Assembly (NCBI GenBank): GCA_032128875.1 | Contig: JAVLKG010000002.1 | Span: 384,001-448,000, forward strand | Direction: 5' to 3' | Origin: Candidatus Melainabacteria bacterium 17Bon1m | GTDB taxonomy: Bacteria > Cyanobacteriota > Vampirovibrionia > Obscuribacterales > Obscuribacteraceae | Length of the DNA: 64,000 bases | Shown here: in pieces, positions 34,776 to 47,090 of the stretch | Position numbering within the stretch: the stretch's first letter is position 1 | Layout of the letters: each line of letters begins with the position of its first letter | Notes under the pieces: model-generated | The model's input: the letters and a program-made list of their open reading frames with translations, nothing else | Told to the model about the DNA's origin: nothing | Database searches by the model: none | Made by a program: the position numbers and the translations under genes

Positions 34776-36695
34776 GTGTCGTCATCGTCCGACACTCCAT
34801 TTCAAACCCTTCCTTCTCGTGATGATCAACCATCTGACGAGAAGACTTACTTTGCGCCCTCACTTTCGTTTTTAACCTATTCCTATCGCGAGACTCTCTT
34901 TGCGGAATTCGAGAGGCTGGTGGAAGCAGCAAAGCAGTTCGACGGTTTGATCATCGACCTGATGCAAACTGGTTTTTCTGTGCCTCTTGATGAATTGGTC
35001 AAGTTCAGCCTCTATGCAAAACGGTTGTTGAAACCGCAGGGCGTTTTGCTCTTCGTCAAAGCTGACGGAGCGATTACTCTGACCAAAGATGACCCGGGCG
35101 GCGGTTTGACGTTTAACGTATACGACAGCCCCTTCGGCATTTTTGCGCGGCACCCCATGCTGGCTGATTATGTTTGCGCCACTGTGTCAGGTATCGACAG
35201 GCGACGTCTGCGCGGTGGCGGAAGCACTTTGGCGAACCACATTCTCTACACTTCGACACCTGTTCTCACCGACGCAGGCCGCAAAGCAAAGGAGGGATTC
35301 AATCTTCCGGCGCCGCAAAGCTGGGTTTTGCAAATGATCGACGATTACTCGTCTGTCGAGGCAATTACTCGTACTCTCGAAGAACGCCATCATTTGCCGG
35401 CTGACGAGACCCTGCGCATGCTTCAGGAATTGGAAGCGGAAGACATTATCTTTCCGGTTTTCTCGCGCATTCAGTTTCTCTCCAATTGCTACCACAACAG
35501 AAAACCTTTCAGGCTCGGGCGTTACATGGTTGCAGCCGGTATTCTCAGTGAGTCTCAATTGCAAGAACTTCTGGAAAGACAAGAAGAAGAGGGCTGGGGC
35601 AAAGGGCAGAAGACATTCCTCGGGCTGCTTGCTGTTCGGCTTGGTTTCTTAAATACGCGCGAATTGGAAGTTTTGCTCGACGACCAATACCTTTACGGTG
35701 GCTATCACAAGAAGGCCGACTCTGAAGGTCAATCCGGTCGCAACGTAGAGACCATGCGGGATTCGATGATTGGTTCACTGGGCGCGATCGAGGCGCACGG
35801 TTTGCTTCAATCTTTGTCGACTGCTCAAAAGACGGGCTTGCTCACTGTGGAGAACCGAGACAAGGCGCTCGTTGTTTCATTTACCAACGGCAAACCGATT
35901 GCCGCCAAAATGAACCGTTTGAAGGGCATAGAAGCCATTACAGAGTTTGTTACTAGTTGGACTGAGGGTATTTTCGTATTCCGCGACAAAGGCACCTCAC
36001 AGGAGCTCGAGGAGACCTGCGAGCTGAATCGATCTTTGGACAGGATGCTGCTCGATTCAATGCTTTACAAAGACCAAGTCAATCAAATTCTGGCTCAATT
36101 GCCGACAGGGCGAAACACCATTCTCGAGCGGGTTTGGAATTTCGAGACTCTCTGGAACAAGCTGTCCACCAAGCCTTTGAAATATCTCGATGAGAGTACT
36201 GTCACCGATCGCGACAAGCAGGCGATTCAGCAGCTTGCTAATTTGATCGATGGACTCTCGACTCTCGATGAGGTGATAAAGTCGTTCGACATGTGGCCCG
36301 GTTATGCCATCATCAAGTCGGTTCACCTGCTTATTGAGCAGCGTCTGGTGAATGTGCAGCAAGCCAGCCTTTTCCGTCCTCTTTCAGTCTTCCAGCGCAT
36401 TGTCAGTGAGTTGCAAAAAACTATCGGCAGAGACGACAACAAAGCGCTCTTGCAGGCCAGTCTGCATTATGTTCATGGTGATTCCCCTGCAGCATCCCGT
36501 TTCCACATCGATCACGAGGGACGGGTGAGCGTCAACCTTGCTCAGGTCAAAACCTCGGGTACGCCGGTGTCCGCAGTTTTACTCGAACTTCGTCGCTGGA
36601 TGGAGGCGTACCTTGCGTACTGCAGGCGCCAGATCGATCCGCATATTGTCGACAATGCGGTCGCCAAGATAGTCAACGGCCAGCCGCCGCAGTAA
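34776..36695 (+). CDS. MshEN-motif plus DUF4388 (PatA-N-like) domain protein
   Basis: RLGRYMVAAGILSESQLQELLERQ...FLGLLAVRLGFL tandem motif; GSL...LLQSL...KTGLL.V...F.NG.P..A...W.EG.FVF. Confidence 0.75.
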   Translation: MSSSSDTPFQTLPSRDDQPSDEKTYFAPSLSFLTYSYRETLFAEFERLVEAAKQFDGLIIDLMQTGFSVPLDELVKFSLYAKRLLKPQGVLLFVKADGAITLTKDDPGGGLTFNVYDSPFGIFARHPMLADYVCATVSGIDRRRLRGGGSTLANHILYTSTPVLTDAGRKAKEGFNLPAPQSWVLQMIDDYSSVEAITRTLEERHHLPADETLRMLQELEAEDIIFPVFSRIQFLSNCYHNRKPFRLGRYMVAAGILSESQLQELLERQEEEGWGKGQKTFLGLLAVRLGFLNTRELEVLLDDQYLYGGYHKKADSEGQSGRNVETMRDSMIGSLGAIEAHGLLQSLSTAQKTGLLTVENRDKALVVSFTNGKPIAAKMNRLKGIEAITEFVTSWTEGIFVFRDKGTSQELEETCELNRSLDRMLLDSMLYKDQVNQILAQLPTGRNTILERVWNFETLWNKLSTKPLKYLDESTVTDRDKQAIQQLANLIDGLSTLDEVIKSFDMWPGYAIIKSVHLLIEQRLVNVQQASLFRPLSVFQRIVSELQKTIGRDDNKALLQASLHYVHGDSPAASRFHIDHEGRVSVNLAQVKTSGTPVSAVLLELRRWMEAYLAYCRRQIDPHIVDNAVAKIVNGQPPQ

Positions 36696-36776: not shown

Positions 36777-38366
36777 GTGAAGTACAAATTGGAATCGGCT
36801 TCGCTTTCGCAATGCCAGAGCGATTTGGTTTGTGTATTTGTTTATTCAAATGAAAGTATTGCCGACGTTTTGAAAGATGTCGATCCTGCTTTTGGTCGCA
36901 AGCTTAAGCCTTTTGTGGACATGGTCTCCACGCATGCGACTGAGGATGGTTTCAAAGGAAAAGCCAATCAAGTGCTTGTACTTCCGACATTCGGAAATCT
37001 GACAGCCAGAAGAATTTGTTTTCTTGGAGTTGGAGAAGGCAAAGATTTCACCAATGCCAATGCCAGGAAAGCCGCGGCTACACTTGTAAGACGTTTGCCC
37101 GGTGAAAGCTTTCAAGGCGAGATATCGATTTATTTCCGCCATGGTGCAGCAGGCAAAACTACAGCTAAAAAAACTGCGGTAAAACGTCAAGCAAAAACTT
37201 CCGCCGCTTCGAAATCCGCAGAGCATGGGGATGATGCAGAGATCGCTCAAGCGATTGTCGAAGGTATTCACCTGGCGTCTTACTCTTTCAAAAAGTATAA
37301 GTCGAGCAAAAATGGCGACAATAAGAAAGAAAAAACAGCCCAGACCCTCGGCTTCAGTGGTCTGTCACTGTCTGCAAAAGCGCTCGCAGATGTTTGTGCG
37401 AAGGGAGAATCGATCGCCGAATCTACCAACTTCGCACGCCGCCTAATTGCCGAGCCACCGTGCTTTATGACACCCAGTCGGCTGGCTGACGAAGCTCGTG
37501 CCGTCGGAAAGGAATTCGGTCTCACTGTCAAAGTTTTTGATGCCAAAGAAATCGAGAAGATGTCTATGGGCTCTTTTCTTGGTGTCGCCCGTGGTGCCAA
37601 AGAACCGCCTAAATTCATTGTCATTTCTTATGATGTTCCGAAAGCAAAACGAAAAGTTGCTATTGTCGGCAAAGGCATAACCTTTGATTCAGGCGGGCTT
37701 TCGCTCAAGCCGGCCCAGAGCATGGAACATATGAAATATGACATGTCTGGTGCTGCCGCCGTCATCGCGACAATGCGTGTAGTCGGTAAATTCAAACCGA
37801 ATTTTTCCGTAATGGCAGTGGTCGCCGCTACAGAAAACATGCCTGGAGACAATGCTTTGCACCCGGGCGATGTGATCAAGGCAATGAACGGCAAAACCAT
37901 TGAAGTAAACAACACTGACGCTGAAGGTCGGTTGATTCTCGCCGATGCCCTTACTTACGCTGTTAAGCAAGGTGCCGACGAGTTGATTGATATTGCTACT
38001 TTGACAGGCGCAGTAGTTACGGCCTTGGGTCGTGTCGCAGCCGGAATCATGGGTTCTGATCAGAATCTGGTCAACCAGCTCATTGAAAGTGGTGCGCGCG
38101 GTGGAGAAAAACTCTGGCAATTGCCGCTTTATGATGAATATCAGGAAAGCTTGAAGAGTGATATCGCTGATTTGAAAAACGCAGGTGCTCGCGGCGAGGC
38201 TGGAACGGCCAGCGCCGCTATGTTCCTCAAAGAGTTCACTGGAGGCAAGTCATGGGCGCATTTAGATATTGCCGGTCCAGGCTGGCTGGATCGAGATAGA
38301 GAAGAATGCAACAAAGGCGGCACCGGATTTGGTGTACGCACTCTTTGCCGATATTTGATCGGATAG
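36777..38366 (+). CDS. pepA: leucyl aminopeptidase (M17)
   Basis: GKGITFDSGG, MKYDMSGAA, NTDAEGRL, ATLTGA, HLDIAG. Confidence 0.96.
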   Translation: MKYKLESASLSQCQSDLVCVFVYSNESIADVLKDVDPAFGRKLKPFVDMVSTHATEDGFKGKANQVLVLPTFGNLTARRICFLGVGEGKDFTNANARKAAATLVRRLPGESFQGEISIYFRHGAAGKTTAKKTAVKRQAKTSAASKSAEHGDDAEIAQAIVEGIHLASYSFKKYKSSKNGDNKKEKTAQTLGFSGLSLSAKALADVCAKGESIAESTNFARRLIAEPPCFMTPSRLADEARAVGKEFGLTVKVFDAKEIEKMSMGSFLGVARGAKEPPKFIVISYDVPKAKRKVAIVGKGITFDSGGLSLKPAQSMEHMKYDMSGAAAVIATMRVVGKFKPNFSVMAVVAATENMPGDNALHPGDVIKAMNGKTIEVNNTDAEGRLILADALTYAVKQGADELIDIATLTGAVVTALGRVAAGIMGSDQNLVNQLIESGARGGEKLWQLPLYDEYQESLKSDIADLKNAGARGEAGTASAAMFLKEFTGGKSWAHLDIAGPGWLDRDREECNKGGTGFGVRTLCRYLIG

Positions 38367-38375
38367 CTGATTTAG

Positions 38376-41300
38376 CTAGGTAGAAACAACCTGCGTGATG
38401 CTGCGCATTAGCGGTATGAGCGCATCGGTGTCACGTCCGTCGCTAAGGGTCACCAGAAGTCCTCCGCCAAAATCTGCGATTACCAGGAAGCCGCGCGGTG
38501 TGCGAGCGACGACCTGATGGACGCGATTGTGGCCGATCTTCTTAATTGCAGTTTCTGTATTCATGTACACGGCAAGCGCCCAGATGCCGATGGAATCGGC
38601 TTCTATGTCCTGTGGCATAGTGTTGGCGATGAGCAAACCGTCATGCCCGATGATGATCGATCCGACAACATCAGGCGTGCCACCGATGTGGTGAAGTAGT
38701 CCTTGAATTTCGGAAGCGGCTTCCAAAGTAAGGATCTTCATCTTGGTGTCGGAAAGATCCGAAGCAGTCAATTTGCCAATCTTTTCCAGGTCTTTTTGGT
38801 CAAGCAAGAATTTGCCTATCGATGCAATTCTTCCGCTGCCGGTATCGCCGCCCTGATCTGGCTTGGCATCCAACCTTCCCAAACCTTCGATTTTGGGAGG
38901 AGGAACCGCCGCACCCATTGGATCTTGAACGGCAACGTCGCTCAGTGCTTGAACCGCTGCGGCTACATTCACTCTTTGCTGACCTGCGTTTACTTGCGTA
39001 TCTTGATCTTGAACTCCGAGATTGTCGGAGAAGATCTGATTCATCATGTTGTCGTCGACGCTAAAGAGACCAGCCTGAGCCTGAGGTGCTTGCGGCGGTG
39101 GTGCTCCAAACGGTGCGGGAGCCTGAGCCGGGGCGCCAAACGGTGCCGGTGCCGGAGCGCCAAATGGCGCTGGAGCCGGAGCGCCAAATGGCGCTGGAGC
39201 TTGCTGAGCTTGAGGCATTTGCGGCGGCTGCGGTGCTTGAGCTGGTGCTCCGAATGGAGCGCCAAAAGGTGCAGGAGCGGCAGCTTGCTGAGGAACACCG
39301 AAAGGCTGAGGCGGCGCAGCTTGACCAAATTGATCAAGTGCCTGAGGCGGCGCTCCGAAAGGAGCTGGAGCTGCTTGTTGTGGTGGCACTCCGAACGGCT
39401 GTTGTGCAAATGGCGCGGACGGTGCCTGTTGTTGCATGGGTTGTTGCATTTGCTGCTGCTGCTGCATCTGTTGCTGCATGTCTTGCTGCATTTGAGGTTG
39501 CATCTGCTGTTGCATTTGAGCTTGTGCAGGCATTTGCTGTTCGCCGGTTCCACCAACAGGCTTAGCCATTTCTTGTACTCCAAGGTTTTTGGAGAACAAG
39601 TCGTCCATGGCAGTATCGTCTAAATTGAAAAGTCCGTTCGATTTGTTTTCCGGTGCCGCCGGTGCTGCGGCAAAAGGCGCCGGTGCTGCGGCGACAGGAG
39701 CTTGACCGTTCGGCGGTATAGCCGCCGGGAAGCCGCCTGATGCACTGGGCTGTCCCCAGCCTGTAGCCGGAGGACCACCGGATGCGGTGGCAACGTTTTT
39801 CGACATTACAGGAACGATTTTCGGTTGACCCGCTCCACCAGTTGCCGGTTGCGGCATGGCAAAGGGATTGGCAGGAGCCGGTGCAGCAGGTGCACCAAAT
39901 GGCGCTGGCGGCGCCGATGCTGCTGGAGCAAATGGTTGTGGTGCAGCTTCCGGCTGTCCGAACGGAGCAGGCGGTGGTGCGCCAAAAGGTTGGACCGGTT
40001 CTGGAGTTTGCGCCGCAAATGGCATCGGAGCCGGTGCCGGCGTAGCAAACGGCTGAGGTGCTTCAGGCGCGCCAAATGGAGCCGGCGGCGGTGCGCCGAA
40101 TGGAGCAGGTGGTGCACCAAATGGAGCAGGTGCGCTTGGTGTCGCAAACGGCATAGGAGCTTCTTGAGCCGGTGCACCAAACGGTGCCGGTGGTGGTGCA
40201 GGCGCTGCAAAAGGTTGCGGCTCCGGTGCTTGCTGAGCAAATGCTGGTGCTTGCGGCTCCGGCATTGCAGGCGCAAAGGGCTGAGGATTAGAGTCTTGTC
40301 CAGGCACCGGAGGCGGGTTGAAGGGCTGACCCCATGGGTTGGCTACCGGCTCGGGAGGTGCAATCGGCAGCGACTTCATGATCGCCGGTTGTGGCGGACC
40401 TTCTTGCTTCGGCACTGCTGCCTGCGGTGAGCTTTCATTGATGCCAAGGTGCTCTGAGAATATTTTTTCGATTTCGTTATCGTCGACATTGAATAATGCG
40501 CCGCCGATTCCTGCTGCCGGTGCTTGCGGTGGTGCAGGCATTGCAGGCTGCGGAACTGGTTGTCCAGGAACAAATGCTGGTGGATTGATATTCAATCGCG
40601 AAGGCGAGCCACCTGACTGTGGCATTGCCGGTTCTGGCGGAACTCCAAATGGTTGAGCGAAAGGCTGAGGAGGAGCTGCATCAGCTTGAGGCTGTCTGTG
40701 CAATTGATCTTGTGCTTCCACGACCGGCAAATCCCAACTTGATGCTGTGATGCCTTGGTCAGCTGGAGAACCAAACGGATTTGGTGGTGCCGGCGGTGCC
40801 ATTGGTGCTGGAGCCGGTGCTGCTTGCGGAGCAGGAGGCGGCGAGCCCCAAGGTGTCGGAGCTGCTGGCTGCGGTGAAAGCGGCTCACCGACAGGTTGCG
40901 CTGTAGTTGGGGTCAGTTGCTGGGTGCGTTCTTGAATAGGAACATCCCAGCGCGGAGGGGGCGGCGAAAGTTCAGGAGCTTGCTGTTGCGAGCGATCTTG
41001 AATTGGGGTATCCCAACGATTGTCGCCTGTTGCTTTTGCTGCCGGAGCTGCCATCGGAGAGGGCATTGGCGGTGCTGCTGGTGCTGCCGCCATCGCTTCT
41101 TGCTTCATGCGCTCCTGAATTGGCATATCCCAGCGAGACTCTTCAGAGTTTTGTCCTGGAGCCGCTTGTCCTTCAGCAAGAACATTGGACAGCCTATCCA
41201 TAATTGAATCTTTTGGTATGCCTGTGCCGGCCACACCAGCTGGTGCGCTGGGCATAGCAGGGGCTTGCGGAGCCGCGCCCGCGCCAAATCCACCCGGTGC

Positions 41301-43664
41301 CGAAGCGCCCGGCAGAGGAGGAGCTGCACCAGGAACTGGTACTCCCCACGGATTGTTTGCTGGAGCTGGCGCAGGAGCTGCTTGCTCCTGTGCTCGATTT
41401 TGAATTGGTTGATCCCAGCGATTTGCATCGGCCGCCGGTTGCGCACCTCTGTCCTGAATGGGTGTATCCCAGCGGTTTTGTGCTCCACCGGGCGGCGGAG
41501 GTGGTGGCATCTGCGGTGCGGCTGCTCCCGGTGCCGGTGTTGCGCCCCAACCTTTGGGAGTTGCAGGAGCATTGGAAACAAGTGCGTCAGAACCCGGTGT
41601 GAATGCTCTCCACGTGCCGGTTTCAATTTGTTCTGCGTCTACAGACCAAGCATTGCCTGGCTTGGGAGCTGCCGCCGGAGCCTGAGCTGGTGCGGGTGCT
41701 GGTTGAGCCGGTTCTGGTTCGGGCGTTCTTGCTTGTTCTGCGCCCCAAGCGTTTCCGCCACCAGGCTGACCCCAGCCGCCTCCCGGCTGTCCGCCGGCAG
41801 GTGCACCCCAACTGTCGTTCGGTTTTTGAGCTATCTGACCCCAGCTGCTGCCGGAACTTCCTTGATTTCCCCAGGCGCCGGCCGCTGCTGGTGCAGCTTC
41901 GGCAGTAGGCGCTGCCGCTGCAGGCGCTGAAACTGCGGCATTGGCACCGGAATTTGGATCGTTTCCGGGCGGGTTGCCCCAGGCTTGTGGTTGCGCAGGT
42001 GGTGTTGCCCAACTATCCGGAACTGCGTTTTGACTTCCGCTTGGCGCGCCTTGTCCCCAGCCATTTGCGTTTCCGCCCCATGCTGAGTTTGCACTGCCGG
42101 CCTGTCCGCCTGCTTCAACTGCTGGTGCACCCCATGGATTACTGTCCGGTGCTTTTGCGGCAGGTGCAGCCTGAGACGGTGCGGGCGCAGCGGTTTCAGG
42201 AGTAGGAGGTGAACTCCATCCGCCCGGATTGCCACCACTCCAACTGTCTGCACCACTTGGGGGCGCACCCCATGCGCCGGGAGCAGCCGGTGCGGGTGCG
42301 GGCGCTGCGGCTTGTGGAGACTGTAACGGCTTATTCCAGGGCTGGTCGGGAGAGTCCATATTGGGCATTCCACCCGGCATTCCGAAATTCGGCGCCTGTG
42401 TCGGCGGTGCAAATTGATTGGAAGCAGCGGCCTCGTCGGGATCATCCCAGGCGCCACCTTGTGGCGGTGGTCCCCAATCGCCTTCCTGACCATTCGCCCC
42501 TTTAGGAGCCTCATTGCCCCAGTTCGGATCGCCCCATGCGCCCGCCCCTGTAACGCCTTGACCAGGCGCTTTCAGTCCGGGCATGGGTGGCTGTCCACCT
42601 GCAGGACCACCGGGGACTCCGCCACCAGGCGGTCCACCCCAATTAGAAGCTTCTTGTGTTGGGCTTGTTGGCTTGCCCCAATTACCGGCAAGGTTTGCTC
42701 CACCTTCGCCCATTGCATTTGGTGCCGGCATTGGTGGTGGCATTTGCGGCATTCCAGGCATAGGCATGGATTGCGACGAAGACATTGGCGCGCCCATTCC
42801 AGGAGGCGTCAAACTGGGATTTGATTGACCGGGCAAACCGGTCGGACCATTAAGCTGCTGGCGATTTGGCAAGCCTGGCGGCTTCATCCAATTAGGCTCT
42901 TCTTCCTGCTGGCGACCACTGCCTTCCGGACCGAGTTCGTCCTCGACGCTTATCGGTTCGTGCTCGCCGGTTGCTCTTTGCGATTCGGCGATCTTCCTTC
43001 TTATAGATTCTGCAAGTGTCAGCGGCTGATCATCTGTAAGTTGATTCGGTCCGGCCATGCCGAACTTTTCACCGAGCGATCTTGTAGTCGACTGAGCTTC
43101 ACGGCTGTCCATAATAGGCTCGGACATGCCTTTGGCGATTGCTTTGAGTCGAGTTGCCGTACCGGAGTGATCTTCAGGCGGCCGGCCTTTTGCTTGCGGC
43201 GGCGCCATTTGAGGAGGAATTGAATTGGAGTCTTCAAACTGAGTGATCGGCTGATTCATCGGCTGCGAGCGATGCGGATATCGGCTGCCGCCGGCAGGCT
43301 CCATGTCCATATCCATTCCTGGAGGCATGGTGTCTTTCTTGCCTCGACCACCCTTCTGCTCTTTTTCAGCTTTAGGCGCTTTTTCTTTGCCCTTGAACAT
43401 ATTGCCGAACATCGCGAAGGGTGAGGCTTTCTGTTCCGGCAAATCTTCCAGAATTGCGCGGGCGAGCATCTCTGGCTGAGGCGGCGTCAAGTCATCAGGT
43501 AACTGAACATCATCGGCAGCAAGGAGAACTTGTTGAATTTGGTGATGAAATTTAGCGCACGATTCGCACGTTTCCAAGTGAGCAGACAGCATACGCTCGT
43601 CCTGCGCCTGCAGATCCATGTCGAATCGTTGTTGAATTAAGTGTCGGAATCGACTGCAATTCAT
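38376..43664 (-). CDS. giant protein: N-terminal zf-HC2/ZAS anti-sigma domain, Pro/Gly/Ala/Gln-rich repeat region, C-terminal Roadblock/LC7 (MglB-like) domain
   Basis: MNC...HLETCESC at the N-terminus; VVGSIIIGHDGLLIA...GLLVTL at the C-terminus; no TM seen; 27 nt downstream of an ECF sigma gene. Confidence 0.82.
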   Translation of the reverse strand: MNCSRFRHLIQQRFDMDLQAQDERMLSAHLETCESCAKFHHQIQQVLLAADDVQLPDDLTPPQPEMLARAILEDLPEQKASPFAMFGNMFKGKEKAPKAEKEQKGGRGKKDTMPPGMDMDMEPAGGSRYPHRSQPMNQPITQFEDSNSIPPQMAPPQAKGRPPEDHSGTATRLKAIAKGMSEPIMDSREAQSTTRSLGEKFGMAGPNQLTDDQPLTLAESIRRKIAESQRATGEHEPISVEDELGPEGSGRQQEEEPNWMKPPGLPNRQQLNGPTGLPGQSNPSLTPPGMGAPMSSSQSMPMPGMPQMPPPMPAPNAMGEGGANLAGNWGKPTSPTQEASNWGGPPGGGVPGGPAGGQPPMPGLKAPGQGVTGAGAWGDPNWGNEAPKGANGQEGDWGPPPQGGAWDDPDEAAASNQFAPPTQAPNFGMPGGMPNMDSPDQPWNKPLQSPQAAAPAPAPAAPGAWGAPPSGADSWSGGNPGGWSSPPTPETAAPAPSQAAPAAKAPDSNPWGAPAVEAGGQAGSANSAWGGNANGWGQGAPSGSQNAVPDSWATPPAQPQAWGNPPGNDPNSGANAAVSAPAAAAPTAEAAPAAAGAWGNQGSSGSSWGQIAQKPNDSWGAPAGGQPGGGWGQPGGGNAWGAEQARTPEPEPAQPAPAPAQAPAAAPKPGNAWSVDAEQIETGTWRAFTPGSDALVSNAPATPKGWGATPAPGAAAPQMPPPPPPGGAQNRWDTPIQDRGAQPAADANRWDQPIQNRAQEQAAPAPAPANNPWGVPVPGAAPPLPGASAPGGFGAGAAPQAPAMPSAPAGVAGTGIPKDSIMDRLSNVLAEGQAAPGQNSEESRWDMPIQERMKQEAMAAAPAAPPMPSPMAAPAAKATGDNRWDTPIQDRSQQQAPELSPPPPRWDVPIQERTQQLTPTTAQPVGEPLSPQPAAPTPWGSPPPAPQAAPAPAPMAPPAPPNPFGSPADQGITASSWDLPVVEAQDQLHRQPQADAAPPQPFAQPFGVPPEPAMPQSGGSPSRLNINPPAFVPGQPVPQPAMPAPPQAPAAGIGGALFNVDDNEIEKIFSEHLGINESSPQAAVPKQEGPPQPAIMKSLPIAPPEPVANPWGQPFNPPPVPGQDSNPQPFAPAMPEPQAPAFAQQAPEPQPFAAPAPPPAPFGAPAQEAPMPFATPSAPAPFGAPPAPFGAPPPAPFGAPEAPQPFATPAPAPMPFAAQTPEPVQPFGAPPPAPFGQPEAAPQPFAPAASAPPAPFGAPAAPAPANPFAMPQPATGGAGQPKIVPVMSKNVATASGGPPATGWGQPSASGGFPAAIPPNGQAPVAAAPAPFAAAPAAPENKSNGLFNLDDTAMDDLFSKNLGVQEMAKPVGGTGEQQMPAQAQMQQQMQPQMQQDMQQQMQQQQQMQQPMQQQAPSAPFAQQPFGVPPQQAAPAPFGAPPQALDQFGQAAPPQPFGVPQQAAAPAPFGAPFGAPAQAPQPPQMPQAQQAPAPFGAPAPAPFGAPAPAPFGAPAQAPAPFGAPPPQAPQAQAGLFSVDDNMMNQIFSDNLGVQDQDTQVNAGQQRVNVAAAVQALSDVAVQDPMGAAVPPPKIEGLGRLDAKPDQGGDTGSGRIASIGKFLLDQKDLEKIGKLTASDLSDTKMKILTLEAASEIQGLLHHIGGTPDVVGSIIIGHDGLLIANTMPQDIEADSIGIWALAVYMNTETAIKKIGHNRVHQVVARTPRGFLVIADFGGGLLVTLSDGRDTDALIPLMRSITQVVST

Positions 43665-43691
43665 TATCAGTTACCGCGCTCTCTAAAAGAA

Positions 43692-44264
43692 CTATCCCCT
43701 GCCAAGGCATTTAACTATTTGCACTCGTGCTCTATAGAGCCACGCCTGAATGGTTTCTTTCGGCTGGTGCAAAACCGAACCCATTTGTTCATACGTAAGA
43801 TCGAGTTGGTGGCGCAGCATGAAAACCTTTTGCTGCTCCTCGGACAATGTGCTCAGGCAACGTCGTACCCTTTGCGTTCCGAGAATGACCGTCGTTTCCC
43901 AGTCCATATTGCCAGATCCATCGGAAGCCGGGTCTGTACGAGCACCAGGTGGCAACGGACCAGTGTATTGCGAGTGATACTCGGCGCAAGCGTCAACGAT
44001 AAAATTTGACACCCAGTACCAGAGAGGCATATTCACCTTCTTTGGGTCCGTGTGTTTCAGCGATGCAAAAGCATTGCGGAAAGCCATTATGGTTAGTTGA
44101 GTCGCTGTTTCTGGATTGCCTGTTGCCATGTAAGCGATGGCGTAAAAACGTTCTTGGTGATTCCAGACGAAATCGTTGCGCTGCTCTTTGTTGCCTTTCT
44201 TCAATTCGAAGAGGACTCCGGCAGCCGCTTGGTTGAAATTATTCCGAGAGGGAAGGATAGGCAT
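43692..44264 (-). CDS. divergent ECF-type sigma factor
   Basis: Region 4 LSEEQQKVFMLRHQLDLTYEQMG...TIQAWLYRAR; region 2 recognisable (FYAIAYMATGNPETA) but degenerate. Confidence 0.78.
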   Translation of the reverse strand: MPILPSRNNFNQAAAGVLFELKKGNKEQRNDFVWNHQERFYAIAYMATGNPETATQLTIMAFRNAFASLKHTDPKKVNMPLWYWVSNFIVDACAEYHSQYTGPLPPGARTDPASDGSGNMDWETTVILGTQRVRRCLSTLSEEQQKVFMLRHQLDLTYEQMGSVLHQPKETIQAWLYRARVQIVKCLGRG

Positions 44265-44623
44265 CTTTTTCTATGACAAGACCGCTGAAAATGCGAATAC
44301 TGAAACAATAGCCAACAAAATGTCTGTAGCGGGACGTCAGGAGGGTTTTTCTTGATCGCAACACGCGGCCGCGAATACTCCCAACCAGCAACTCTATGAC
44401 CCAAAAAAAGGGCGAGCTGCCGACCGCCAAGTAGCCACTTTTCCAGTTTACCTGATTCGGGCGGGACTCAGGAAGGATTTTGTGGGATAACTGGTGGGCT
44501 CAAAAACGCTTACGGACTGAAAAAACCTCCGTTGACAGGCGATAACGACTCATACCGCTAACATATGATGTACCACGTTACGCGCGTTAGTATCTTCATT
44601 CTGATAATTAGGAAGCTTGCTCG

Positions 44624-45499
44624 ATGCCATTACCGGAAACGCATACTATTGAAATCAAGGTTCGCAACGCCGCTGCCTATACTTTGAACAATGTTGTTGC
44701 GACAGCAAGAAGCTGTTCGCCACAGGATTTGAAGATTGCTGCAGCGAATGTGGACTTGGTTGACGAGTCCGGTAAAGTGCCGCCAGAAGTGACCGATTTC
44801 GTAAATTATGTTATGACAGATCTCTTCACACTTTTGCACCGAAGTGGGCTTTACAACAGGCAAAGAGCCTTCTGGGAATCAATTGCTCGCGCCGTCAAGA
44901 TTACTGTCCATCCGGTCACACAAGGCTTTTTCAAGAAAGAAGCCTTGCCAATGTACGATGTGCATTTTGAGGATGCCTCAGGTGGCACCACGCTCTTAGC
45001 ATTTGTCGTTCTGAATCACGCTCAGTGGAACGTGCCTAAGTACGCTACTGCGTATTTCAAAGAATTGATGCACAGGGCTCAGCAAGCAGACAAAAAGAGA
45101 CCGGTCATGAAATCCATTATGGTCGTCGCGCCCAAACCGTTTTCAGAAGAGCTTTATAAATACGTAGATAAAATTTTGGGCGGACCAAATCTCGATCCGG
45201 TCTCGAGATTCGAATCGGTTTTGCAATCGCCATTAACTGTCCACCTGAACTTGTTTGAGTATGGTGTGTCGGCAGGCGATGCTCAAACAAGAGATAACTC
45301 GCAGATGGAGCCTGCAGGGCAAGATTCTGATGAAGAGGAAAACTCTGTCAAATCGCCTTCATATGATCCTGCTGAAATTGACGACCCCAATGTAATTGGC
45401 GATGAAAGCCTTCTTCATCCGGAAGATATGAAAGTTCGGCCAGGCCGATTCATCTTCAAGATGATTCTGCCGGATGTTGAGAAGGCGCGTAAGAAATAA
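44624..45499 (+). CDS. hypothetical protein
   Basis: 291-aa ORF divergent from the ECF gene; acidic C-terminal segment. Confidence 0.7.
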   Translation: MPLPETHTIEIKVRNAAAYTLNNVVATARSCSPQDLKIAAANVDLVDESGKVPPEVTDFVNYVMTDLFTLLHRSGLYNRQRAFWESIARAVKITVHPVTQGFFKKEALPMYDVHFEDASGGTTLLAFVVLNHAQWNVPKYATAYFKELMHRAQQADKKRPVMKSIMVVAPKPFSEELYKYVDKILGGPNLDPVSRFESVLQSPLTVHLNLFEYGVSAGDAQTRDNSQMEPAGQDSDEEENSVKSPSYDPAEIDDPNVIGDESLLHPEDMKVRPGRFIFKMILPDVEKARKK

Positions 45500-45521
45500 A
45501 TCCTCTCTTTTTTCAAAGAGT

Positions 45522-47090
45522 TTATAGAGGAATATTTCCGTGTTTTCTCTTCGGTCTTTCAATGCGCTTGTTTTTCTGCACTTCCAAGGCGGCATGCAGA
45601 TATCGTCTCGTTTCTGACGGCATGATCACATCGTCTACATAGCCAAGCTCTGCAGCTACATAAGGATTGGCAAATCGTTCTCTGTACTCTGCAACGAGCT
45701 CTTTGTGTTTGGCAGGTGCATCGTTTTTGAGCTTGTCCAATTCTTTTCTGTACAAAAGATTGACCGCTCCATCAGCCCCCATAACTGCAATTTCCGCTGT
45801 GGGCCAGGCGAAATTGAAATCACCGCCTACGTTTTTCGAGCCCATTACGTCGAATGCACCGCCATATGCTTTGCGAGTGATTACGGTGAGTTTGGGAACA
45901 GTTGCTTCGCAGTACGCGTAAAGCAGCTTGGCTCCATGCCTGATAATGCCATGATGCTCTTGAGTGCGACCAGGCAAATAACCCGGCACATCGACAAAAG
46001 TAATTAATGGAATGTTGAATGCATCGAGGAAACGCACGAATCGAGCGCCTTTGATTGATGCATTGATGTCCAGCGTTCCTGCTAACTTCTTTGGCTGGTT
46101 GGCGACAATTCCTACTGTTTCACCATGCAGTCGGGCGAAGCCTGTGATTAAGTTAGTAGCGTAAAGTGGCGCTATTTCAAAGAAATCGCCATTATCGAAG
46201 ATGTTGGTGATTACGTCGTGCATGTCATATGGCTTGGCAGGATCATGTGGCACAACGCTGTCGAGAGAAATCATGTTTGCTGGTTCGGCATCCTGACCGG
46301 GTTCTACAAAGGGCGGCGGTTCAAGATTGTTGAGCGGCAAATAGGAGAGCAGTTTTCTCACCATCCAGAAAGATTCTTCTTCGTCCTCTGCCAGCAGTTG
46401 TGCAACACCGCTTTTCTCGTTGTGCACGCGTGCTCCACCCAGTTCGTCAAAGGTGACATCTTCACCAGTGACGGTGCGCACGATTTCAGGACCGGTGATA
46501 AACATATAGCTGGCTTTGTCTACCATGATAGTGAAGTCCGTGACGGCTGGGCTGTAAACCGCGCCGCCTGCGCAGGGTCCGTAAATCACAGAAATCTGTG
46601 GAATCACTCCTGAAGAATTGACGTTTCGATAAAAGATATCTGCGTAGCCCGCCAGTGAAGCTACACCCTCTTGAATGCGCGCTCCGCCGCTTTCGTTCAG
46701 ACCGATGACTGGGCAACCTGCTTGCTTGGCCAGGTCCATCACTTTACAGACTTTGCGGGCGAAGACTTCACCGAGCGCGCCACCAAGGAAGGTGGCATCA
46801 TGCGCGAAAATGTAGACTGGGCGCCCATCGATTTTTCCTTGCCCGGTGACAACGCCATCGCCCACGACCTTCTTTTCATCGAGCCCAAAGTGGTCGCAGT
46901 GGTGGACTGCATAGCGATCTAGTTCGATGAAGGAGCTTTCGTCAAGCAAGCTGGCGATGCGCTCTCTTGCATGCATGGTGCCTTTGTCGTGACGTTTTTT
47001 CAAAGTCGCTTCGCTGACGGCAACTGCTTCTGCGCGTTTTTCAATCAGGCGCTCGTTGGGCGTTTTTGCTGTTTTGCTCTTCGTTTCCAT
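45522..47090 (-). CDS. acyl-CoA carboxylase carboxyltransferase (PccB/MmdA-like)
   Basis: SGGARIQEG, GPCAGGAVYSPA, DVPGYLPG, RKAYGGA, KHGNIPL; start 47090 or 47141. Confidence 0.93.
   Translation of the reverse strand: METKSKTAKTPNERLIEKRAEAVAVSEATLKKRHDKGTMHARERIASLLDESSFIELDRYAVHHCDHFGLDEKKVVGDGVVTGQGKIDGRPVYIFAHDATFLGGALGEVFARKVCKVMDLAKQAGCPVIGLNESGGARIQEGVASLAGYADIFYRNVNSSGVIPQISVIYGPCAGGAVYSPAVTDFTIMVDKASYMFITGPEIVRTVTGEDVTFDELGGARVHNEKSGVAQLLAEDEEESFWMVRKLLSYLPLNNLEPPPFVEPGQDAEPANMISLDSVVPHDPAKPYDMHDVITNIFDNGDFFEIAPLYATNLITGFARLHGETVGIVANQPKKLAGTLDINASIKGARFVRFLDAFNIPLITFVDVPGYLPGRTQEHHGIIRHGAKLLYAYCEATVPKLTVITRKAYGGAFDVMGSKNVGGDFNFAWPTAEIAVMGADGAVNLLYRKELDKLKNDAPAKHKELVAEYRERFANPYVAAELGYVDDVIMPSETRRYLHAALEVQKNKRIERPKRKHGNIPL

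Follow-up and report, generated by a model that had tools for sequence, protein, structure and literature searches.

Within a 64,000-nucleotide stretch of the genome of Candidatus Melainabacteria bacterium 17Bon1m (contig JAVLKG010000002.1, positions 384,001 to 448,000 of the forward strand; hereafter, the window), we identified two adjacent genes that encode a small sigma factor of the extracytoplasmic function (ECF) type, P0002, and a 1762-residue protein, P0001. The latter joins a predicted anti-sigma domain at its N-terminus to a Roadblock/LC7 domain at its C-terminus through a long intrinsically disordered region (IDR). P0001 and its partner are a real variant of the sigma/anti-sigma pair, previously undescribed as far as our literature searches go. 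The best overall explanation, to which we assign a probability of roughly 0.5, is a sigma/anti-sigma switch that would receive its input at the Roadblock/IDR end and would be linked to the GTPase MglA and type IV pili. The features that define the pair are listed below in window coordinates; the 46 orthologues counted here and throughout are that of the window and those of 45 complete loci in other genomes, with motifs counted by regular expressions made for this analysis.

43692..44264, minus strand: ECF-type sigma gene P0002, 190 amino acids (aa), recognised by matches to TIGR02937, Sigma70_r4_2 and orthologue profiles.
43665..43691, minus strand: 27-nucleotide (nt) spacer between the sigma and anti-sigma genes; the sigma stop codon lies at 43692-43694 and the ATG of the large open reading frame (ORF) at 43664.
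38376..43664, minus strand: anti-sigma/IDR/Roadblock gene P0001, an uninterrupted ORF of 1762 aa.
43425..43664, minus strand: predicted anti-sigma domain, residues 1-80, four predicted helices, class I or zinc-binding anti-sigma (ZAS) type by RsiW profile match and complex model.
43656..43658, minus strand: codon of Cys3, candidate fourth zinc ligand, co-varying with Cys33 and Cys36.
43557..43580, minus strand: HLETCESC (His29-x3-Cys33-x2-Cys36), residues 29-36, an HxxxCxxC motif found in 28 of the 46 orthologues.
38379..38933, minus strand: conserved C-terminal module, residues 1578-1762, made up of PPPKIEGLGRLD, the GRIASIGKFLLDQKDLEKIGKL helix and the Roadblock/LC7 domain, delimited by Pfam, structure model and profile.
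38451..38696, minus strand: Pfam Robl_LC7 (PF03259), residues 1657-1738, 27.9 bits against a cut-off of 23.

The assignment of the 190-aa P0002 as an ECF-type sigma factor is strongly supported. ECF (group 4) sigmas consist of regions 2 and 4 only, lack regions 1.1 and 3, and are about 170-220 aa long; the size of P0002 fits regions 2 and 4 only, and Pfam returned no other domain matches. The protein scored 49.1 bits against the NCBIfam model TIGR02937 (sigma70-ECF; cut-off 42.9) over residues 28-187, and its region 4, which binds the -35 element, scored 45.1 bits against Pfam Sigma70_r4_2 (cut-off 25.7, E 7.8e-12). All NCBIfam equivalog and subfamily models remained far under their cut-offs. 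A profile of 17 orthologues matched the solved structures of AlgU (6in7_B, E 1e-8), RpoE (1or7_A, 8e-8) and SigW (5wuq_A, 5e-6); region 2 is divergent from the Pfam model, yet these alignments span residues ~15-187. An earlier sequence-only reading of this DNA had placed an ECF gene 27 nt 5' of the large gene, and we recovered that arrangement with the same coordinates and strand. No terminator-like or promoter-like site was found in the spacer (43665-43691), and the two genes, judged by their layout, probably share one transcript.

Comparisons of profiles and models likewise strongly support the view that residues ~1-80 of P0001 are an anti-sigma domain of the zinc type (ZAS, RsiW-like). When 17 orthologues were combined into a profile, it matched the cytoplasmic domain of the Bacillus protein RsiW (5wuq_C, E 1.5e-5) along residues 1-79, and RsiW shows the same Cys...His-x3-Cys-x2-Cys pattern. 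In the underlying alignment (A2, 17 orthologues taken across genera), all four candidate ligands, Cys3, His29, Cys33 and Cys36, are present in 13 of 17 rows; in the other four, Cys3 and Cys33 are both missing, and in three of them Cys36 is missing too. This co-variation argues for a functional metal site wherever the ligands are present. When P0002 was modelled together with residues 1-95 of P0001, both supplied as alignments, the interface score ipSAE reached 0.78 (0.79, 0.78 and 0.78 in the individual runs) against 0.01 for the best of three controls, a result that indicates likeness rather than binding by this particular copy, because similar sigma/anti-sigma complexes, SigW/RsiW among them, have already been solved. 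The mark that the model reached is also reached by 58 of 80 solved complexes and by 2 of 110 mismatched pairs. The runs share at least 84% of their contacts, and partner pLDDT is at least 80. On the sigma factor, residues 29-70 and 113-187 are contacted in the model, as in the canonical clamp on regions 2 and 4. The interface residues are conserved. The domain is predicted from the model to clamp regions 2 and 4 and so to keep the sigma factor off RNA polymerase. Overall, the RsiW match, the ligand set and the complex model agree well with the N-terminal HxxxCxxC anti-sigma partner that the sequence-only reading had proposed.

The ligand set also invites a different explanation, in which P0001 is a redox switch of the RsrA kind: the four residues would hold zinc, thiol oxidation would free the sigma factor, and the IDR and Roadblock domain would serve for dimerisation or placement only. 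The complete, co-varying set in the window and in 13 of the 17 aligned genera is in keeping with such a switch, as is the fact that P0001, like RsrA, is soluble. However, 18 of the 46 orthologues lack HxxxCxxC and still keep the sigma pairing, the short motifs and the Roadblock domain. Redox sensing therefore cannot be the mechanism that is conserved, and the zinc site is unlikely to be a conserved input or sensor. Moreover, RsiW, the closest solved relative, binds zinc and is not known as a redox sensor, and ~1680 further conserved residues would be left without explanation. We consider a redox switch decidedly unlikely.

To place the pair in context, we collected 61 genome loci via the C-terminal module and surveyed 107 genomes of the order Obscuribacterales, to which the organism belongs, and 400 other genomes of the phylum. 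The large ORF is complete in 45 of the 61 loci (1418-1773 aa), and in every one of these 45 an orthologue of the sigma gene lies 5-83 nt upstream on the same strand; conserved ECF pairing in relatives, which the sequence-only reading had suggested looking for, is thus the rule. Four further loci contain the sigma gene beside a large ORF that is interrupted by masked bases or a frame break or cut off where the contig stops, and the remaining 12 start inside the gene. A separate word-indexed search returned 74 proteins of 969-3084 aa with the C-terminus of P0001. Within the order, the sigma gene is present in 103 of 107 genomes (E<=1e-30), in single copy in all but one, the C-terminal module in all 107 (E<=1e-5), and a strong anti-sigma orthologue in 94 (E<=1e-50). 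G422, G432, G455 and G456 (completeness 77-98%), the four in which no sigma gene was found, all belong to the 13 without a strong anti-sigma match. The invariable adjacency and this joint absence indicate a working pair, and we regard it as very likely that P0002 and P0001 form a sigma/anti-sigma pair. Outside the order, the phylum sample yielded only weak sigma matches, in five genomes (E 1e-11 to 1e-13, 24-32% identity).

The same loci bear on whether the large gene is an artefact, in which misassembly would have joined two genes or a GC-rich, non-coding repeat would have been taken for an ORF. The sequence is indeed repeat-rich and odd in composition, with a GC content of ~0.60 in the gene against ~0.49 in its flanks, and the length of the protein varies from 1656 to 1762 aa within one genus. 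On the other side, the same uninterrupted architecture recurs in 45 independent assemblies, some on contigs of millions of bases, in-frame motifs are kept across genera, and DNA tandem arrays are short only. In addition, an independent DNA run from another study covers 30 of 30 bins of 38000-45600, piecewise over the gene, with no differences listed. Because the architecture is conserved in independent assemblies and covered by that run, a misassembled fusion, a danger that the sequence-only reading had itself named, is excluded for practical purposes, and we give an artefact of either kind next to no chance.

Between its two ends, P0001 was described in the sequence-only reading as having no transmembrane (TM) helix and about 1500 aa of low complexity. 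The absence of a TM helix and the length hold; "low complexity" does less than justice to a region in which conserved short motifs are arranged in ordered zones. In the Kyte-Doolittle profile of the whole protein, the highest 19-residue window is 1.32, located within the Roadblock strands, and none reaches 1.6. The lack of a membrane span is strongly supported by this profile, which means that the classical release route by intramembrane proteolysis does not apply. A TM helix after the anti-sigma domain was considered and ruled out by hydropathy. Residues 96-1590 are composed of 20.9% P, 18.5% A, 10.8% G and 10.0% Q, together 60%, and the following elements can be distinguished along the chain:

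43335..43424, minus strand: aromatic/hydrophobic stretch followed by a Lys-rich run, residues 81-110, with F90 nearly invariant in A2.
42993..43094, minus strand: motifs QSTTRSLG (residues 191-198) and LTLAESIRRK (residues 215-224) of the charged, N-proximal part of the IDR, supported by orthologue motif counts.
41325..42890, minus strand: Trp-rich zone, residues 259-780, holding nearly all of the protein's 20 WG dipeptides.
41601..41624, minus strand: conserved ETGTWRAF motif, residues 681-688, within the Trp-rich zone.
40932..41471, minus strand: five (R)WDxPIQ(D/E)R repeats, residues 732-911; the WDxPI type occurs at least once in 46 of 46 orthologues.
41187..41204, minus strand: IMDRLS motif within the WDxPIQ repeat zone.
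39030..40787, minus strand: Phe-rich zone, residues 960-1545, defined by its sequence motifs, with 18 FG[AVQS]P repeats and a Q/M run.
40458-40496, 39594-39632 and 39030-39068, minus strand: three LFxxDDxxxxx(I/L)F-SxxLG motifs within the Phe-rich zone.

These elements are widely shared. The LTLAESIRRK type occurs in 45 of the 46 orthologues and the QSTTRSLG type in 31, W-dipeptide motifs number 29-62 per protein in all 46, and the LFxxDD type occurs at least once in all 46. The last is also the repeat unit (MFDxGGLDSALDDLFGD) of TM-anchored relatives described below. F[GA] dipeptides number 28-38 in the genus of the window against 3-20 elsewhere, which makes this genus the richest in FG. The composition fits an IDR of the stickers-and-spacers type, with aromatic stickers in a Pro/Ala/Gly/Gln background. 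The stretch at residues 81-110 is possibly a peripheral membrane-binding or docking motif; at this position some family members are more hydrophobic (best 19-residue Kyte-Doolittle values of 1.65 in P0071 and 1.85 in P0194). An origin of the middle region as a simple DNA tandem repeat was rejected, as the gene contains only six such arrays, all short. Among close strains of one genus, whose C-termini are 93-99% identical, P0001 proteins range from 1656 to 1762 aa; such strain-level differences indicate that the IDR gains and loses repeat units quickly.

A long IDR without a membrane span could alternatively make P0001 a proteolytic timer: the tether would be a substrate of cytoplasmic proteases such as Clp, Lon or FtsH, degradation under stress would free the sigma factor, and the Roadblock domain would only dimerise. 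Soluble anti-sigmas are known as protease substrates, which lends this idea some weight. A degradation tag, however, needs neither ~1500 residues of ordered motif zones kept across genera nor a C-terminal module conserved better than the sigma-binding domain, and we judge a timer as such to be unlikely. Proteolysis may nevertheless remain compatible, as a final step, with a switch that receives its input at the Roadblock/IDR end.

The C-terminal module is the best-conserved part of P0001: its last 185 residues are 61-73% identical across genera, versus 44-65% for the anti-sigma domain. Taken with short motifs kept in 45-46 of 46 orthologues, this conservation indicates that the Roadblock/IDR end is functional, and we lean slightly towards input through this end rather than through the zinc site. 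The Roadblock/LC7 domain that the sequence-only reading had recognised there is confirmed both by the Pfam score given above and by fold. In the AlphaFold model of the module (mean pLDDT 73; block means of 80 for residues 71-80 and 88-94 for residues 81-180), a Roadblock alpha-beta-alpha sandwich (H70-84, E89-96, E101-104, H112-132, E140-144, E149-155, E158-164, H169-183) is preceded by a less confident helix. Foldseek matched the model to 108 PDB chains at E<=0.001, and all listed rows are of the Roadblock fold, comprising Roadblock, MglB, p14/MP1, Ragulator, the dynein Roadblock light chain and a Streptomyces Roadblock domain; the best was an Asgard Roadblock protein (9jue_F, E 3.2e-8, TMt 0.81), and MglB (6izw_C) followed at E 1.1e-6 (TMt 0.79). 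By sequence, the module profile (A3) gave nine matches to solved chains, including an archaeal Roadblock (7f8m_A, 1e-9), CvnB5 (1.4e-5) and dynein Roadblock light chains. As regards a conservon (CvnA-D) context, PF03029 had no match above its cut-off in the genome, and no search was made for DUF742.

The module belongs to a wider family. Among 1.84 billion cluster representatives, its profile found 1216 at E<=0.001, 358 at E<=1e-10 and 183 at E<=1e-30, and in the best 150 it almost always sits at the extreme C-terminus. The N-termini of these 150 are anti-sigma-like in 40 (24 with HxxxCxxC), contain a hydrophobic segment in 45, are of another kind in 36, and are short or fragmentary in 29. Judged from these sequences, the family keeps the module and exchanges its anchor at the N-terminus, which is either an anti-sigma domain or a TM helix. 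In further families of the phylum, proteins with the module are 370-730 aa long and consist of a TM helix, a Pro/Ala-rich tether with six to eight MFDxGGLDSALDDLFGD repeats, and the module. Five families, Sericytochromatia among them, supplied 12 loci, and in 11 of these the gene for this TM form lies directly upstream of a PilB-type ATPase gene on the same strand; the ATPase has T2SSE and MshEN domains, with TIGR02538 as its best model. No description of a pilB-linked TM-Roadblock gene was found in the literature searched. The TM-form loci concerned are L019-L029 and L099-L110, and L115-L124 carry the names Sericytochromatia or Blackallbacteria.

Further copies of the module occur near P0001 orthologues and within the window's own genome. 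Eight genomes from four genera have one or two small genes (127-283 aa) immediately downstream of the anti-sigma gene, on the same strand and with the same Roadblock module, which suggests Roadblock-Roadblock partners. The genomes in question are G404, G405, G407, G408, G409, G419, G471 and G484; the window's genus is not among them. The genome of the window itself encodes a stand-alone Roadblock protein of 122 aa (C3:631791-632159). It also encodes a 792-aa paralogue with N-terminal TM helices and an extended Roadblock module (C9:167657-170035, minus strand, locus L017), whose Pro/Glu/Lys-rich tether has a long (PEPK)n run and two LF...D...IF motifs. An orphan paralogue of ~660-700 aa (C6:265240-267345, minus strand, locus L098) shares the extended Roadblock module and has shorter IDR motifs. 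Its N-terminus shares 33% identity with the anti-sigma domain (E 2e-10) but none of the ligands, and no sigma gene lies adjacent to the paralogue; proteins like this one form a group of their own among the database representatives. As the pilB-linked TM relatives and the orphan paralogue illustrate, the architecture of P0001 may have arisen by exchange of the N-terminal anchor.

These relatives also raise the possibility that P0001 is first of all a structural scaffold or hub, whose main job is a Roadblock-based or condensate-like assembly, like that of the TM-anchored relatives beside pilB, and whose N-terminal domain brings in the sigma factor as a client or is a relic. The occurrence of the module with other anchors (45 TM-anchored versus 40 anti-sigma-like among the best 150), the orphan paralogue with its ligand-free anti-sigma-like domain, and the aromatic stickers in the IDR all speak for it. 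It sits badly with the sigma gene found beside all 45 complete orthologues, the joint absence of both genes from four genomes, the conserved interface residues and the high-confidence interface model, and we rate it as very unlikely, below even the redox switch. The redox, proteolytic and scaffold explanations are not mutually exclusive with parts of the switch that we favour.

A candidate partner system of the Roadblock/IDR end is encoded in the same genome. Two MglA genes, 64% identical and ~850 nt apart, are found at C3:548718-549314 and C3:550168-550797. Comparison with solved structures matched them to MglA of Thermus and Myxococcus, at E 6e-66 and 1e-63. No mglB lies beside them, and the stand-alone Roadblock gene is located ~80 kb away. 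In the sample of 400 genomes from the phylum, the module and MglA occur together in 41, the module alone in 2, MglA alone in 4 and neither in 353. The two module-only genomes have short stand-alone forms (E ~1e-5), and a large gut-type family (f2) has neither module nor MglA in any of its 169 genomes. Within the order, 103 of 107 genomes encode MglA, including all 39 of high quality. We tentatively name MglA and type IV pili as the partner system, an assignment that we hold at clearly less than even odds. Should it hold, the pair may tie gene control to the machinery of pili and polarity.

The switch would then work as follows. The ECF sigma factor would be held by the ZAS domain of P0001 and kept off RNA polymerase. 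The rest of P0001 would form the input side, a long disordered tether with zones of docking motifs (WG, RWDxPIQ, FGAP and LFxxDD...LF) that is closed by a Roadblock domain presumed to form dimers. This end would place sigma-loaded P0001 in a Roadblock-based assembly tied to the MglA GTPase or to the type IV pilus apparatus. A change in that assembly, through partner exchange at the Roadblock domain or the motifs or through turnover of the tether, would free the sigma factor. The logic would resemble that of FlgM and sigma-28, in which a disordered anti-sigma makes transcription respond to the state of a surface machine. Release controlled by localisation, as put forward in the sequence-only reading, would be a plausible but hypothetical mechanism of this type. 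A more specific version, which we offer as a speculative extension, holds that P0001 is a multivalent, membrane-free scaffold that stores the sigma factor in a Roadblock assembly at the type IV pilus/MglA apparatus, possibly as a condensate of the Trp and Phe sticker zones. Release would occur by partner exchange at the Roadblock domain or the LFxxDD motifs (with MglA-GTP, stand-alone Roadblock proteins or PilB), and the TM anchor of an ancestral pilB-linked scaffold would have been swapped for the anti-sigma domain. If this version is true, pilus activity, surface contact or polarity would be read directly as transcription, a cytoplasmic counterpart of the FlgM checkpoint.

Several results weigh against a sigma/anti-sigma switch tied to MglA and pili, in addition to the limit on the complex model given above. 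At the sigma end, Pfam Sigma70_r2 had no match on P0002 even at E<=1, which bears on promoter specificity and activity. At the anti-sigma end, the zf-HC2 check suggested in the sequence-only reading was a near miss: the isolated 95 N-terminal residues scored 22.0 bits, 0.2 under the cut-off of 22.2. NCBIfam antisigmaE scored 19.8 bits on the large protein against a cut-off of 50. At the Roadblock end, the A3 sequence profile matched no MglB chain at E<=0.01. A match to MglB by fold and not by sequence marks a Roadblock-superfamily domain that is not demonstrably an MglB; of the MglB-like Roadblock proposed earlier, the shared fold stands, and by sequence the domain is nearer to archaeal Roadblock and CvnB5. 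As for the partner system, the mglA genes lie on contig C3 and P0001 on contig C2, so that they are not adjacent, and the pilB gene of the window's genome (contig C1) has no Roadblock neighbour. The co-occurrence of module and MglA is a shared lineage pattern rather than a series of independent events, because the genomes are kin, and two of the genomes without the sigma pair, G432 and G456, still have MglA.

A last group of such points concerns regulation. A search of the whole genome with the two patterns from the region upstream of the sigma gene, described next, returned few matches, judged by a rough estimate to be no more than chance. Neither a regulon nor a sigma-dependent promoter could be defined; by our own reading, the AAC/CGT-like spacing in the upstream region misfits the usual ECF promoters. 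Three runs labelled RNA-Seq that cover 38000-45600 (X2-X4) gave no evidence of transcription: their contigs of 96-112 kb, identical to the window and derived from what is probably the source sample, look like genomic DNA and hence carry no information on expression.

Upstream of the sigma gene, the pair is bordered by the following features:

44265..44623, minus strand: intergenic region and sigma leader of 359 nt, shared with P0077, examined in an alignment of 20 upstream regions.
44559..44577, minus strand: conserved element CGTGGTACATC(A)TATGTTA, nearly invariant across genera, with unalignable flanks.
44424..44456, minus strand: conserved element ATCAGGTAAACTGG...GGC.NCTTGGCGG, nearly invariant across genera and followed by a hairpin.
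44624..45499, plus strand: divergent gene P0077, 291 aa, with a homologue divergently upstream of the sigma gene in 48 of the 61 loci.

The hairpin that follows the element at 44424-44456 shows compensatory changes between genera in the alignment of 20 regions, and in this genome a terminator-like hairpin with a T-run lies at 44411-44428. The long form of the first element was found at its own site only, with no extra copies in the genome. Rfam matched nothing in the window at gathering scores, and the interval 44200-44700 was likewise without a match at E<=5. The homologues of P0077 are 25-95% identical and share invariant residues that include an H-x2-GL(Y)NRQ block. The family has no Pfam or NCBIfam match, and the Protein Atlas was without a usable match. 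The AlphaFold model of P0077 is of good quality by its scores (pLDDT 85, pTM 0.83); Foldseek returned nothing for it at E<=0.001, and the best VIA-align hit had a Z of 6.5. Several restriction-endonuclease-like folds reached a Z of 5-6; all these values are under the level at which such a match carries much weight. P0077 could be a target or a third member of the sigma unit.

On the other side of P0001, a gene at 34776-36695 on the plus strand has a product of 639 aa in which a DUF4388 (PATAN-like) domain and a weak motif of the MshE type for binding cyclic di-GMP are recognised. The gene is convergent and lies two genes downstream of P0001, with a PepA gene between them. Its product is 66-99% identical among the loci, versus 49-97% for PepA, and it is present downstream in 42 of the 61. 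The neighbours were also considered as clues to function and set aside: PepA, a carboxyltransferase, MgtE and a group-1/2 sigma factor are housekeeping genes, and the synteny looks like general collinearity.

ECF sigmas are the largest group of alternative sigma factors, and only a handful of release mechanisms are known for them, namely membrane proteolysis, redox, partner switching, phosphorylation and C-terminal extensions. The best-conserved Roadblock end, kept in nearly every sampled genome of the order, points to a further input route via a platform domain of the small-GTPase type. The analysis also exposes a wider IDR-Roadblock family tied to pilB in non-photosynthetic relatives of cyanobacteria, undescribed as far as we searched, whose members are long disordered bacterial proteins with conserved short linear motifs as their organising elements. 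Control of motility and polarity would be joined to transcription in a little-studied lineage, provided that the proposed tie to MglA and pili is real. In the full-text literature searched, no paper dealt with an anti-sigma carrying a Roadblock domain or with ECF sigmas of Melainabacteria, although supplementary tables of ECF classifications might list the group. The sequence-only reading, too, had not recognised the architecture among characterised ECF groups, and we found no description of it.

Comparison with known systems shows where P0001 and P0002 are ordinary and where they depart. SigW/RsiW of Bacillus subtilis (5wuq) is alike in that an ECF sigma factor is paired with a zinc-binding class I anti-sigma domain encoded just downstream; its two chains are the best or near-best solved matches to our two profiles, and the Cys3...His-x3-Cys-x2-Cys pattern is common to RsiW. 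RsiW is a single-pass membrane protein of ~200 aa that is released by site-1/site-2 proteolysis, whereas P0001 has no TM helix, ~1680 extra residues and a Roadblock end. SigR/RsrA of Streptomyces coelicolor shares the soluble ZAS anti-sigma. RsrA, a thiol-disulfide sensor of ~105 aa, has no further domains, and the Cys ligands of the P0001 type are dispensable in 18 of 46 species.

For the far end, MglB of Myxococcus and Thermus (6izw, 6hjm, 3t12) has the same Roadblock fold, and MglA orthologues are present in the window's genome. MglB is a stand-alone GTPase-activating protein (GAP) of MglA, ~130-160 aa long and usually encoded beside mglA; the Roadblock domain of P0001, in contrast, ends a giant protein whose gene is not beside mglA, and a GAP role for it is hypothetical. 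Accessory Roadblock proteins of the MglC/RomY type from the Myxococcus polarity module are reported to act as adaptors that pair with other Roadblock proteins and not as GAPs, and such pairing would fit the small Roadblock genes downstream of the anti-sigma gene in some genera; to our knowledge, these proteins have no link to a sigma factor and no IDR of the P0001 kind. The TM-anchored, pilB-linked IDR-Roadblock proteins have a homologous module (25-27% identity in A3, 30-34% over the tblastn match) and share with P0001 the LF/MFDxxxLDxxLDDLF-type repeats in a Pro/Ala-rich tether. They differ in having a TM helix instead of the anti-sigma domain, no sigma neighbour, and a position directly upstream of pilB.

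In logic, the nearest analogue is FlgM/sigma-28, where a disordered anti-sigma couples the state of a surface machine to transcription. FlgM is an intrinsically disordered protein of ~100 aa, unrelated to P0001 in sequence, and is removed by export, a route that is not indicated for P0001. Overall, the sigma-binding end of P0001 is of the ordinary class I/ZAS type, closest to RsiW, and its far end is an ordinary Roadblock fold; what is new, as far as we have searched, is that both ends are united in a single soluble protein, 1400-1870 aa long, whose IDR is organised by motifs.

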